Shown: positions 27,125 to 30,287, numbered from the stretch's first letter. The stretch is 42,185 nt of DNA from Desulfobacterales bacterium (GCA_050122435.1 JASFIX010000001.1:1-42185); one strand, 5' to 3'. Notes: generated by a model not told the origin, from the letters alone. Made by a program: numbers and translations.

Positions 27125-29323
27125 TCAATGAATCGTCGGTTTGCGAATCTGATATTTTTTAATTTTTTCATAAAGCGTGCTGCGGCTGATTCCCAGCTGC
27201 AGGGCGGCCTTTTTCTTGTTCCAATCGCATTCCTGCAATACTTCCTGGAGCAGTTTTTTCTCGTTTTCAACGATCGTCCCCGGGGCTTCTGGAACAAGCG
27301 CCGCGGCGACATCCCGAATGGAAGAAGGCAGATCCGAAATTTCGACCTTGCTTCGCTTGGCCAGTACAGCGGTATGCTCGATGCTGTTTTCCAGCTCACG
27401 GACGTTACCCGGCCAGGCGTAATCCAGAAGCAGCCGCATGGCCTCGGAGCCGAAATCTTTAATTTCTTTATCCTGCTCTGCTGAAAACCGGCGTAAAAAG
27501 TACCGGGCCAGCAGGGGGATGTCGTTGCGACGCTTTCTCAAAGGCGGCAGGTGAATCGGAATCACATTGAGACGATAAAAAAGATCCTCCCTGAAGCTGC
27601 CTTTTGTGACTTCTTCCAGCAGGTTTTTATTCGTGGCAGCTAGGATTCGTACGTCTACATTTAACGTTTCTTCACCGCCAATGCGCTCAAATTTTTGGCT
27701 CTGTAGAACCCGCAGCAATTTGATCTGGGCCGAAGGGGCGATTTCACCGATTTCGTCTAAAAATACCGTGCCGCCGTTCGCCTGCTCGAAGCGCCCGGTC
27801 TTCTGCCGGATAGCTCCGGTAAAAGCTCCTTTTTCATGACCGAAAAGCTCGCTTTCCAGCAGTGTTGCCGGATAGGCAGAGCAGTTAATTACGATAAAAG
27901 GTTTGTTATTGCGCGGACTCTTCCGATGAATGGCGCGGGCGACCAGCTCCTTGCCGGTTCCACTCTCTCCCTGAATGAGAACCGTAGCGTCGGTGGGGGC
28001 GATATCTTCTATCAAGCGATAAATATTTTGCATCTGAGGGTCTTTACCGATGATCCCGCTGAATTCGGCTGTCTTTTCGATCCGGGTTTTTAATTCACGA
28101 AGTTCTTCTTCGTGGATCACCGAACGCCGGATGGCGCCCACGGTTTGATTTAAAATTAAGTCGATAATATCCAGTTCTTTGGTGACACAGGCACAATTGC
28201 CGGGGCAGGCGATCAGCATGGCGCCCTGAAGCTGATTCTCATGATAGAGCGGGAACGTCACCAATTTCTCCACGGACTGAAAGATTTGTGGCAGATAAAT
28301 CGTTTTGGATGGACCGGCCTCGAGAAATTCCATTTTCTTAACTCCGGACAAAAGTTCAGCCGCTTTTTGAGATGAGGCCTTATCCAGGGTTAAGGAAGCA
28401 TTCTCATATTCAAGGAAGATATTTTCACGATTGCTGCTAAAAACCAGCATACACATATCCCTACAGGTTACAATGCTCTGCAGCTTATTGATCAAATACC
28501 GGCAGACGTCCCGCAGATTTGTCAACGCGCCAATTTCCTGGGCAATGGTAAATGAGGTGCGCGTTTGTCGGTGTGCGCGGTCCAGTTCCATGGTTTTTTC
28601 TTTGAGCCGATGGGTGTAATCTTTGATACCGGCAACCATGTTATTGAAAGCAGCGGTCAATTTGCCGACTTCATCATTGCTCATCACATCAACCTTAACA
28701 TCGAGATTGCCTTCATCGATCTTTTCGGCTGCTTTGGCCAGCACCGCCAGGGGGCCGGTTATGCGCTTTATAAACAGCAGGCTTCCTCCCAGAGCCAGAA
28801 GAAGGATGGCAAGCGTAAGCACGCTCATCTGCAACCACAATTGGGCAACCTGATCGCGATAGGGCTTTTCGGAAACACCAAGGCGCAACAGCCCGGCCTT
28901 GCCTGAAAATATTGGCCAGGAAATATCGAGATAATGTTCCCCTTCGGTTGATACGATTTCCTGTTGATTGCCGTAATGCTCCAGGACCGCATGATTGGCA
29001 TCAAGCAGTTCCAACGGAATTCCCGCGGAAAACGTGTGTGCCAAAACATGGTTGTCTCTTATGATAAAAAGATAGGCGACCATGGGATTGCTGCGCATCT
29101 TATAATCCAGCATTTTCTGGAGCGCCACTAGATCGTTGGTCAGAATTTTATCGGTGGCATCGAGTTCGACGGATTGGGCCAGATTTTCAGCCTGTGCAGC
29201 CAGGGACTGGAAAAGGCTACTGCTGTAGCGCTGGGTCACCAGTATCGAGATCAGCAACCCGCTGCCGATAACCAATAATGATACCGCCAGAAGTAGTTTG
29301 CTTTTCAAACTTTGAAGTCGCAT
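27125..29323 (-). CDS. Membrane-bound sigma54-dependent transcriptional activator (TM, periplasmic domain, TM, HAMP, GAF-like region, AAA+, Fis-HTH)
   Basis: HAMP segment KRITGPLAVLAKAAEKIDEGNLDV...DEVGKLTAAFNNM. Walker A GESGTGKE. GAFTGA is present. C-terminal HTH AALQLGISRSTLYEKIKK. I place the start at ATG 29323 (GGAGGA SD, 8-nt spacer) rather than TTG 29347. Confidence 0.9.
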   Translation of the reverse strand: MRLQSLKSKLLLAVSLLVIGSGLLISILVTQRYSSSLFQSLAAQAENLAQSVELDATDKILTNDLVALQKMLDYKMRSNPMVAYLFIIRDNHVLAHTFSAGIPLELLDANHAVLEHYGNQQEIVSTEGEHYLDISWPIFSGKAGLLRLGVSEKPYRDQVAQLWLQMSVLTLAILLLALGGSLLFIKRITGPLAVLAKAAEKIDEGNLDVKVDVMSNDEVGKLTAAFNNMVAGIKDYTHRLKEKTMELDRAHRQTRTSFTIAQEIGALTNLRDVCRYLINKLQSIVTCRDMCMLVFSSNRENIFLEYENASLTLDKASSQKAAELLSGVKKMEFLEAGPSKTIYLPQIFQSVEKLVTFPLYHENQLQGAMLIACPGNCACVTKELDIIDLILNQTVGAIRRSVIHEEELRELKTRIEKTAEFSGIIGKDPQMQNIYRLIEDIAPTDATVLIQGESGTGKELVARAIHRKSPRNNKPFIVINCSAYPATLLESELFGHEKGAFTGAIRQKTGRFEQANGGTVFLDEIGEIAPSAQIKLLRVLQSQKFERIGGEETLNVDVRILAATNKNLLEEVTKGSFREDLFYRLNVIPIHLPPLRKRRNDIPLLARYFLRRFSAEQDKEIKDFGSEAMRLLLDYAWPGNVRELENSIEHTAVLAKRSKVEISDLPSSIRDVAAALVPEAPGTIVENEKKLLQEVLQECDWNKKKAALQLGISRSTLYEKIKKYQIRKPTIH

Positions 29324-29327
29324 TCGA

Positions 29328-30287
29328 TTATTCCTCCAGCGAAGCAATTTTTAGTTCTATATTACGGATACTGTCGTACCAGGCATCCTGCGTTGGAGTG
29401 AAACGATCGATCATTAATTCCTCCAGAATCTCTTGTCCCCTGGGGTCGCTGTGCATCGTAAAAAGTACCCGGCGAATACGATGTTTTAACTCGGATGCTA
29501 GAAAAGGTGATGCGACAATGGGCGGAATGCCGTAGGGTTCTGATTTGCGAATGATGCGGGTTTTGGAAGTGAAAATCGGATTTTTGCGGTGGTAATAGTC
29601 CCATATCAGGCTGTCGATTGCGGCCCCGTCCACCAGGGATTTGGCCACGGCCAGAATAGAGTTATCATGGCTGTAAGTGTAAATGGTTTTGTTAAAAAAT
29701 GTCTCGGGCCGCTCTCCCATCTGGCTGAGCCAATAAGTGGGCACCAGTTTGCCGGTATTGGAATCCGGATCGGTAAATGCAAAAACCTGCCCCCTGAGGT
29801 CATTCAGATTTCGAAAGCGGCTGGTCTTGTTGACAATCAAATAAGATTGGTAAAAATGGCTATTCTGAACCTCGGGAGTTGCCAGCAACTCAAATCCGTA
29901 CTTTTCCTTGCCGACGACATAAGGCCCCGAGCAGATAAAGGCCAAATCAATCTGACCCTTACCCAGTAATTCATTAATTTCAGCATAGGTTTTACGTTGA
30001 ATAAACTGAACCTCTCTACCAAGACGATGCCCGATATAATCTAAAAGCTGTCTATAATAAACAAACGTGTCTTTTGGAGAGATCATGGCAGCGACGGCCA
30101 TCCTGAAAGGAGGGTTTTCAAGCGTCTGTTTTCCCGGCTGCTCGATAACTACGGTTTTGGAAAAATCCACCACCCGGGCATCGGTTTCACCGCCGCAGGC
30201 ATACAGAAAAAACAGGCCGGCGGAAACGGCCAGGCATGATATCAAAAAGCTAATTCTAAATTTGAATTGATGCTCGATGGAATCCAT
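29328..30287 (-). CDS. PhnD-family (phosphonate-bd fold) periplasmic oxyanion-binding lipoprotein, ArrX/AioX-like, with no cognate ABC permease or ATPase
   Basis: Lipobox LFFLYAC. TYAEINELLGKGQIDLAF, FTDPDSNTG and SHDNSILAV...VDGAAIDS are typical of PhnD-like binding proteins. I place the start at ATG 30287. Confidence 0.8.
   Translation of the reverse strand: MDSIEHQFKFRISFLISCLAVSAGLFFLYACGGETDARVVDFSKTVVIEQPGKQTLENPPFRMAVAAMISPKDTFVYYRQLLDYIGHRLGREVQFIQRKTYAEINELLGKGQIDLAFICSGPYVVGKEKYGFELLATPEVQNSHFYQSYLIVNKTSRFRNLNDLRGQVFAFTDPDSNTGKLVPTYWLSQMGERPETFFNKTIYTYSHDNSILAVAKSLVDGAAIDSLIWDYYHRKNPIFTSKTRIIRKSEPYGIPPIVASPFLASELKHRIRRVLFTMHSDPRGQEILEELMIDRFTPTQDAWYDSIRNIELKIASLEE

Follow-up and report, generated by a model that had tools for sequence, protein, structure and literature searches.

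A two-gene unit at positions 27,125 to 30,287 was analysed within a stretch of 42,185 nucleotides from a Desulfobacterales bacterium (GCA_050122435.1 JASFIX010000001.1:1-42185), the whole of which is called the window below. The unit encodes a periplasmic binding lipoprotein of the ArrX/AioX type (319 amino acids, 29328..30287) and a transmembrane sigma-54 activator (732 amino acids, 27125..29323). In the direction of transcription the genes follow each other, all on the minus strand, in the order CCG protein, binding protein, activator, two-CW helix-turn-helix (HTH) protein, stand-alone receiver-like protein, arrA, arrB, arrC and arrD, and then molybdenum-cofactor genes. The genes for the binding protein, the activator and the receiver-like protein are referred to here as the cassette. 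Base composition is even across the window.

The binding lipoprotein and the membrane activator

The binding protein gave a full-profile match to PF12974, Phosphonate-bd (E-value 2.8e-66, Pfam), that is, to the PhnD (class II periplasmic binding protein) fold. Its closest solved relative by sequence is ArrX of Chrysiogenes arsenatis (6x6b, E-value 4.8e-60, 40% identity); the next sequence matches in the PDB are AioX (2e-45) and, far behind, PtxB (7.6e-20) and PhnD (about 1e-11). Positions 30195-30287 code for a signal peptide plus lipobox (LYAC, Cys31); the lipobox cysteine is kept across relatives together with the segment that follows it, C-G-x-x-x-D-x-x-VVDFSKT. The ligand pocket of AioX was described by Badilla et al. 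as Y88, C106, Y131, S161, S163, H192 and D210, of which C106 is not present in PhnD and is specific to the subfamily (PMC5908839). The equivalents in the window protein are Y101, C119, Y146, S176, T178, H207 and D225, all seven being retained save for the change of S163 to threonine; N177 is a further pocket column. The protein is assigned by its sequence to the AioX/ArrX/ArxX sensing subfamily of PhnD-like proteins. No ABC permease or ATPase was found in a Pfam scan of the 35 larger open reading frames (ORFs) of the window, and a crude motif screen detected no ABC ATPase adjoining the cassette in 74 related loci. The screen missed an NMT1-type ABC system in one of them (L004), which lies 7 kb upstream of the cassette and is neither adjacent nor conserved.

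The binding-protein gene ends with TAA and is followed, after 4 nt, by the ATG of the activator gene at 29323. The ribosome-binding site of the latter, GGAGG, lies inside the 3' end of the binding-protein gene, and the two genes are predicted to be translationally coupled within one operon.

The domains of the activator were assigned from Pfam matches, hydropathy and structural models. Exactly two hydrophobic segments were found (residues ~6-32 and ~158-190), and since the N-terminus is positively charged, residues ~32-161 are placed in the periplasm. This periplasmic part of about 130 residues (28841..29230) is flanked by transmembrane segments TM1 (29231-29296) and TM2 (28766-28840) and appears to be a single Cache (PDC) domain. 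An AlphaFold model of residues 30-165 (mean predicted local distance difference test score, pLDDT, 89.7) has a single Cache/PDC fold, and its best Foldseek matches are the extracellular domain of WalK/YycG (TM-score 0.71-0.75) and the sensor domains of Tlp3, CitA and DctB. Relatives match the Pfam family sCache_3_2, while the isolated N-terminal segment of the window protein gave no Cache match in Pfam even at E-values up to 10. On the cytoplasmic side follows a HAMP domain (residues ~183-234, 28622..28777, PF00672, E-value 3.8e-14) and then a region of residues ~243-420 (28064..28597) that has no Pfam match and was identified as a GAF domain by modelling. The AlphaFold model of residues 243-425 (pLDDT 87.7, predicted TM-score 0.81) retrieved GAF domains for all of the top 50 PDB matches in Foldseek, with E-values from 1.8e-6 and TM-scores of 0.55-0.67. 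The C-terminal part consists of a sigma-54 AAA+ domain (Sigma54_activat, 27551-28054, PF00158, E-value 1e-73), an AAA lid (AAA_lid_14, 27308-27538, PF25601) and a Fis-type HTH_8 domain (27152-27265, PF02954, E-value 5.5e-16). Both Walker motifs are intact, with Walker A (GESGTGKE) starting at residue 452 and DEIGE at 523, and GAFTGA is found at 499. PDB sequence matches of the AAA+/HTH part include ZraR and NifA, and the top-scoring NCBIfam model for the activator is NifA, at 403 bits and below its cut-off.

No HisKA, HATPase_c or Response_reg domain was found in the activator by Pfam, with no match to PF00072, and the 35 larger ORFs of the window gave no histidine kinase (HisKA/HATPase_c) either. 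A reading made earlier from the sequence alone (the sequence-only reading) had described a lipobox-bearing, PhnD-like binding protein with no ABC permease or ATPase nearby, separated by 4 nt from one 732-residue protein with the domain string transmembrane segment, periplasmic domain, transmembrane segment, HAMP, GAF-like region, AAA+ and Fis-HTH. These points are borne out: the four Pfam families that it named (PF12974, PF00672, PF00158 and PF02954) all matched, the comparison with the AioX pocket gave the agreement described above, the GAF-like region can be called a GAF domain on the strength of the model, and the periplasmic domain can be named as Cache. Its further statement that neither kinase nor receiver is present stands for the activator; elsewhere in the cassette there is a stand-alone receiver-like protein (see below).

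The GAF domain of the activator carries four cysteines, C287 (codon at 28463-28465), C373, C377 and C379, of which the last three form a CPGNCAC cluster encoded at 28187-28207. All four are 93-99% conserved in 73 relatives, and this holds in all four classes of target operon described below. In the model the last GAF strand ends at C373, the loop preceding the long helix toward the AAA+ domain holds C377 and C379, and C287 is located just before the first strand. The position of the cysteines near the GAF/AAA+ junction recalls the oxygen-sensitive NifA of rhizobia. The arrangement suggests a second, cytoplasmic input to the activator, probably an additional redox, Fe-S or metal check. For the CxxxCxC motif the possibility of an As(III) site like that of ArsR, and particular to Arr, was weighed. 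This proposal is weakened by the conservation of the cluster and the fourth cysteine throughout the four target groups. With no such tie to Arr, the cysteines more likely form a redox, Fe-S or metal site than one dedicated to As(III). The four-cysteine site was absent from the earlier account of the activator.

The promoter region, the receiver-like protein and the arr operon

A predicted sigma-54 promoter, TGGCATATTCATTGCT (TGGCAT-N5-TTGCT), is located on the minus strand at 26409..26424, 73 nt upstream of the GTG start of the receiver-like gene. It is the single match to TGGCAY-N5-TTGCW on both strands of the 42 kb, with 0.19 matches expected by chance, which confirms the promoter cited in the sequence-only reading. 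Farther upstream, on the same strand, lie two palindromes of the TGTCC-N7-GTACA type (TGT-N11-ACA), which are putative binding sites of the activator, or upstream activating sequences (UAS). UAS1, TGTCCGGAATTCATACA (26653..26669), is found ~245-250 nt upstream of the promoter, and UAS2, TGTCAGCAATTCGTACA (26587..26603), 66 nt downstream of UAS1 and ~180 nt upstream of the promoter; both were recognised from an alignment of upstream regions and from counts across loci. The same alignment gave a candidate site for integration host factor (IHF), TCAGTTGATTAA (26484..26495, minus strand), which is conserved as TCAATTGnTTAA in close relatives and is so labelled by comparison with WATCAANNNNTTR, which we take to be the IHF consensus. 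The blocks conserved upstream in close relatives are TGTGTCCGGAATTCGTACACA near -245, TGTCnGCAATTCGTACAGA near -180 and TCAATTGnTTAA near -70.

Under the strict pattern, 40 of 65 loci have a sigma-54 motif between the activator gene and the receiver-like gene, and about 10 more have one when one position is relaxed. Where a promoter could be recognised (50 loci), the 260 nt upstream of it contain one or more TGT-N11-ACA palindromes in 44 loci (mean in shuffled sequences 3.6), and paired palindromes, usually 65-66 nt apart, occur in 21 loci as against 0.17 in the shuffles. Scans of the region for sigma-70 promoters and terminators returned nothing above the shuffled expectation. The region ahead of the receiver-like gene and arrABCD has the predicted features of a classical UAS, IHF-like and sigma-54 layout, which makes the link from the activator to arr much stronger than it would be from the neighbourhood alone.

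The arr operon (arrABCD, 20677..25891, minus strand) was assigned by NCBIfam and by comparison with the PDB. It comprises arrA (23306-25891), arrB (22567-23295), a gene for an ArrC/NrfD-type protein (21451-22566) and one for an ArrD/TorD-like protein (20677-21369). The NCBI models for ArrA (NF041714, 1305 bits, below the equivalog cut-off of 1600) and ArrB (NF041715, 331 bits, also below its equivalog cut-off) are the best matches by far, though sub-cut-off. ArrA aligns end to end with ArrA of Shewanella ANA-3 (6cz7, 1163 bits) and has a twin-arginine translocation signal and an RGRY motif (MRGRYSY). The motif (R/K)GRY marks ArrA, as opposed to XGRGWG in ArxA (PMC6549141). By these sequence features the target enzyme is taken to be a genuine ArrA.

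The first gene behind the promoter encodes the stand-alone receiver-like protein (129 amino acids, GTG start, 25947..26336, minus strand). Its match to PF00072 is weak (E-value 2.8e-4) and sub-threshold, at 21 bits against a cut-off of 30, and no sequence match was found in the PDB. The family retains the equivalents of CheY Asp57, Thr87 (as serine) and Lys109 (lysine or arginine), and the acidic pair that holds magnesium is variable. Its most conserved stretch, HPEL..A......AC...P.D..EL, covers the alpha4-beta5-alpha5 face, which receivers use for contacts. The gene is present in nearly all of the 84 loci surveyed below and is the first behind the sigma-54 promoter whatever enzyme follows; as this holds for every target class, it is considered part of the regulator and not of the enzyme. 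The protein, which would itself be induced, probably feeds back on the activator.

These findings bear on the possibility that the system is still a phosphorelay, in which an unlinked kinase phosphorylates the receiver-like protein and this protein controls the activator in trans. The near-universal presence of the protein, the retention of the Asp57, Ser/Thr87 and Lys/Arg109 equivalents and the conservation of the usual interaction face are what such a relay would have in its favour. Against it, no conserved kinase is found in or near the cassette, HATPase-like ORFs being sporadic and without fixed position across the loci and absent from the 42-kb window; the magnesium-binding acidic pair is not conserved; the Pfam receiver match stays below threshold; and the position of the gene behind the regulated promoter is more in keeping with a feedback element than with the primary input. 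A phosphorelay is regarded as very unlikely.

Between the activator gene and the UAS lies a gene for an XRE-type HTH protein with a cysteine-rich two-CW domain (124 amino acids, 26738..27112, minus strand), assigned by HTH_3 and by NF045718, two_CW_domain (E-value 1e-12). The gene is a frequent companion of the cassette, found in many Arr-type loci, although it varies in position and is missing from some loci. L001, L006, L009, L011, L013, L014, L016, L018, L032 and L036 have it, and in L002, L035 and L041 it is located elsewhere. Its product may be a further regulator of arr.

Distribution of the cassette, its targets and its ligand

A search with the N-terminal 421 residues of the activator yielded more than 800 cluster representatives, of which the best 120 are all of the same architecture; proteins of the NtrC family labelled 'HAMP domain-containing' are already found in automated annotations. 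When one genome per GTDB species was scanned, 129 relatives were returned, of which 80, with 42-87% identity, were kept. All of these are from metagenome-assembled genomes (MAGs), nearly all of them of Desulfobacterota. ORFs were called in 84 loci and scored against the proteins of the window. The binding-protein gene is directly upstream of the activator gene wherever sequence is available, with the exception of L054 (Nitrospirota) and possibly L084. In four contigs retrieved by protein identity, synteny is kept from the binding protein through arrD and the CMD, FmdE and MoCF genes, and the flanks differ. The conserved unit is recognised by these comparisons as a three-gene cassette present in about 80 species-level MAGs.

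The targets of the cassette among the 84 loci are Arr in 22, a Ttr-like enzyme in about 18, a Psr/Phs-like enzyme in 12 and multihaem cytochromes in about 6, the remaining loci being too short for assignment. The Ttr-like enzymes are encoded in B-C-A order, with a catalytic subunit of about 1060 residues that is nearest to TtrA (450-530 bits, far below the cut-off), and the Psr/Phs-like enzymes in B-A order, nearest to PhsA/Psr (about 320 bits). The cytochrome group combines a multihaem cytochrome c with cytochrome b561. Within the clade of the window, defined by at least 68% identity in the N-terminal region of the activator, Arr is the target in 10 of 11 informative loci, the exception being L012 with a Ttr-like enzyme. 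The family is thus best described, on this comparison, as a portable regulatory cassette for periplasmic respiratory reductases, with the window as its Arr-linked form. The pairing is not specific to Arr: the survey found the gene pair more often away from arr than beside it, a result of the kind that the sequence-only reading had named as counting against its proposal.

Several loci deserve separate mention. In L025, L043, L069 and L076 the cassette precedes an octahaem-like cytochrome c (c554/c552-type matches) and cytochrome b561. [quoted passage not shown] L007 and L015 belong to the same MAG (JARRJQ01) and hold paralogous cassettes with 83% and 73% identity to the activator of the window, so that one organism can hold several such switches.

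The eight pocket columns of the binding protein read YCYSN(T/S)HD alike in the Arr, Ttr-like and Psr-like groups, and the aspartate (D225, AioX D210) is changed to histidine in the cytochrome group alone. Clustering of the binding proteins by identity gave no separation by downstream enzyme. Reading the ligand from the pocket or from the clustering was rejected, since neither tracks the enzyme apart from the aspartate-to-histidine change of the cytochrome group; ligand specificity is accordingly not inferable from sequence. AioX binds arsenite and ArrX binds arsenate despite shared pocket residues (PMC5908839), so that identity of the pocket does not imply the same ligand either. From its context arsenate is the best guess for the ligand of the window protein.

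The pair may alternatively sense a cue other than arsenate, such as phosphate, a sulfur oxyanion or a general signal that an oxyanion electron acceptor is available, with specificity for Arr supplied by the two-CW HTH protein or by the GAF cysteines. This would fit the occurrence of the cassette with an identical pocket ahead of Ttr-like and Psr/Phs-like operons and, with D225 changed to histidine, ahead of multihaem-cytochrome operons, and the lack of clustering by enzyme type. It would also fit two reports, that ArrX binds phosphate as well as arsenate and that arrXSR-like genes are found next to a sulfur reductase in Methanoperedens elements (PMC13444090 for the latter). On the other hand, AioX and ArrX are specific for arsenite and arsenate even with their common pocket residues (PMC5908839), ArrX is the closest solved relative of the window protein, and Arr is the target in nearly all informative loci of the clade of the window. 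This alternative is judged unlikely.

The origin of the sensor module was examined by an exhaustive search of residues 1-251 of the activator against 1.8 billion cluster representatives, which returned 1153 proteins at E-values up to 1e-10. A sigma-54 AAA+ domain is present in 12 of the best 150 relatives; the longer of the remaining ones, which are without this domain, are about 30% identical across the whole unit of transmembrane segment, Cache, transmembrane segment and HAMP. These longer, distant relatives number 77. HATPase_c was found in 60, so that the nearest kin of the module other than activators are mostly histidine kinases; the others include diguanylate cyclases, and 66 of the 77 match sCache_3_2 (PF17203). 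The plasmid-encoded AioS of strain NT-26 has the same layout as the activator, with a transmembrane segment, a domain of ~150 residues, a second transmembrane segment and HAMP, and its alignment with the sensor module is collinear but weak (hhalign probability 64%, E-value 6.5e-5). By this comparison the activator looks like a kinase-type sensor module grafted onto a GAF-AAA+-HTH activator of the NifA/FhlA type.

In another reading the Cache domain itself would be the ligand sensor, with the binding protein in an accessory role, as scavenger or buffer, as co-receptor of a second signal or in connection with transport, and with no need for docking. In favour of this, the periplasmic domain has the canonical ligand-binding Cache/PDC fold of CitA, DctB and Tlp3, its top-conserved residues (VLAHTF and LDI..PI..G.AG.LR.G.SE) are common to hundreds of kinases and cyclases, and the binding-protein pocket is constant across target enzymes. 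What speaks against this is that adjacency and coupling of the two genes are essentially invariant over 42-87% identity and four kinds of target, that no transporter is nearby, either among the window ORFs scanned or in the 74 loci, and that AioS shares the membrane layout of the activator. Moreover, the binding protein falls in a subfamily whose members have been shown to be sensor partners of AioS-type kinases (PMC5908839). Sensing by the Cache domain on its own is considered quite unlikely.

Other genes of the window were recorded in passing. Upstream of the binding-protein gene, at 30483-33738 on the minus strand, are genes for a GlpC-like CCG protein (30483-31934), a DUF4213/DUF364 protein ('heavy-metal chelation'), a PEMT/ICMT-like membrane methyltransferase and a DinB_2 protein. 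Most of them recur in several close relatives, the CCG gene in some alone (L001/L017, L019). A second molybdopterin oxidoreductase cluster at 8607-14488 (minus strand) encodes a catalytic subunit of 769 residues along with cytochromes c (one NapB-like and one multihaem), an Fe-S protein and an NrfD protein; rhodanese and TauE sulfite-exporter genes (15187-16617) lie just upstream of it, and no regulator of its own is in view. At 6503-8002 (minus strand) a 499-residue protein with DUF1858, DUF438, hemerythrin and PAS_10 domains resembles an oxygen-, NO- or iron-sensing architecture; its gene is close to the respiratory clusters of the window.

Proposed mechanism and relation to known systems

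The region is interpreted, with moderate confidence, as a kinase-less, one-component transmembrane sigma-54 switch that depends on the binding protein and turns on arsenate respiration. As a reading of the predicted proteins and promoter, the collapsed one-component relay put forward in the sequence-only reading is well supported by architecture and comparison. The kinase-less activator, the coupled AioX-type binding protein and the UAS/sigma-54 promoter all agree with it; the cassette is not confined to Arr.

In the proposed mechanism the lipid-anchored binding protein would capture periplasmic arsenate and dock on the Cache domain of an activator dimer. A piston or rotation signal would then pass from TM2 through HAMP to the GAF domain, which would keep the AAA+ domain inactive as in activators of the NifA and NorR type. 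Once this hold is released, membrane-tethered dimers at the two UAS sites would assemble into an ATPase ring, and bending of the DNA would bring the ring to the sigma-54 RNA polymerase holoenzyme and open the arr promoter, the promoter DNA being pulled toward the membrane. Modulation of the output would come from the cysteine site and the receiver-like protein. The cassette is modular, the same three genes and DNA motifs being plugged ahead of other periplasmic reductases in related genomes.

Several points weigh against this interpretation. Cache domains usually bind small ligands themselves, and the docking of the binding protein on the Cache domain is a contact that we infer. A ring-forming AAA+ activator tethered by 12 transmembrane helices is geometrically awkward and, to our knowledge, has no precedent. 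The phospho-acceptor aspartate kept by the receiver-like protein makes an unlinked kinase possible. All members of the cassette family come from MAGs of uncultured organisms. The pocket is identical in cassettes ahead of Ttr-like and Psr-like enzymes, so that arsenate as the ligand is not established by the sequence, and L012 (9007-18479) has a Ttr-like B-C-A target despite 80% identity in the N-terminal region of the activator, 68% identity in the binding protein and the same UAS and promoter, which suggests that target or ligand was swapped recently. Phosphate, too, is bound by ArrX, with a dissociation constant of 150 uM (PMC5908839). As a further alternative for the step inside the cell, the cytoplasmic part of the activator may be freed by proteolysis.

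The proposed switch shares several features with the AioXSR, ArxXSR and ArrXSR systems (Rhizobium NT-26, Alkalilimnicola ehrlichii and Chrysiogenes arsenatis). These likewise have a PhnD-fold protein of the AioX subfamily with the same pocket, acting as a sensor and not as part of a transporter, and a membrane partner with a periplasmic domain of ~130-150 residues between two transmembrane segments, followed by HAMP. With the Aio and Arx systems it further shares a sigma-54 AAA+ activator as output, acting on a TGGCA-N6-TTGC-type promoter before a molybdoenzyme operon. The cassette differs in having no HisKA/HATPase core and no receiver domain in the activator, in which HAMP is joined via GAF to the AAA+ and HTH domains in one polypeptide. 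It also differs in that the binding protein is a lipoprotein, in the extra stand-alone receiver-like gene, and in serving several enzyme types and not just arsenic enzymes. The sequence-only reading had presumed that all of the XSR systems use sigma-54 regulators, which is incorrect, ArrR of Chrysiogenes being CitB/FixJ-like and without an AAA+ domain (PMC5908839).

With NifA, FhlA and NorR the activator has in common the order of GAF, AAA+ (with GAFTGA) and Fis-HTH, with GAF in a position to gate AAA+. These three are soluble proteins responding to cytoplasmic ligands or partners, whereas the activator described here has a two-transmembrane Cache-HAMP module and a periplasmic partner. In TorT-TorS, LuxP-LuxQ, ChvE-VirA and the kinases of the TtrS/ThsS type (with a fused PhnD-like domain), an anion or metabolite is likewise detected by a periplasmic binding protein or domain, which informs a membrane sensor controlling a respiratory operon. 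These kinases phosphorylate a separate regulator, whereas here the membrane sensor would itself be the transcription activator. ToxR and CadC are likewise single polypeptides that cross the membrane, with sensing beyond the cytoplasm and binding of promoter DNA within it. These are single-pass proteins of the OmpR type that act with sigma-70, whereas the activator of the cassette has two transmembrane segments, is HAMP-coupled, belongs to the ATP-dependent sigma-54 type and must oligomerise.

A literature search of incomplete coverage found no description of a membrane-bound or HAMP-containing enhancer-binding protein of this kind, nor of this pairing. Each part is known, as is the logic that leads from a binding protein through a membrane sensor to a sigma-54 promoter (AioXSR). 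The difference lies in the wiring, in which, as predicted here, the membrane sensor itself is the AAA+ activator and is accompanied by a partner lipoprotein, by a pseudo-receiver and by a GAF domain with cysteines. The fact that all members come from uncultured organisms would explain why the cassette has not been studied. The window may hold the founding example of an undescribed class, in which Cache-HAMP drives assembly of an AAA+ ring without phosphotransfer. Together with a lipoprotein of the AioX family and a pseudo-receiver, this class would form a portable plug-in ahead of at least four kinds of reductase in Desulfobacterota, and would integrate a periplasmic oxyanion signal with a cytoplasmic one (redox, Fe-S or metalloid) read by the four-cysteine GAF domain; this broader proposal is tentative and somewhat short of probable.

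The wiring removes the kinase and receiver steps, and makes testable both the gating of oligomerisation of an AAA+ sigma-54 activator by HAMP and the function of the ring while it is anchored in the membrane. The cassette is compact, comprising two or three genes and a promoter region of about 300 bp, and its apparent re-use for several oxyanion reductases makes it attractive as the chassis of periplasmic, single-protein biosensors that respond to arsenate and related anions. For annotation it follows that an ArrX-like gene alone is no marker for arsenic metabolism. Respiratory arsenate reduction mobilises arsenic in aquifers and sediments, and the cassette bears on the control of arr in abundant, uncultured Desulfobacterota.

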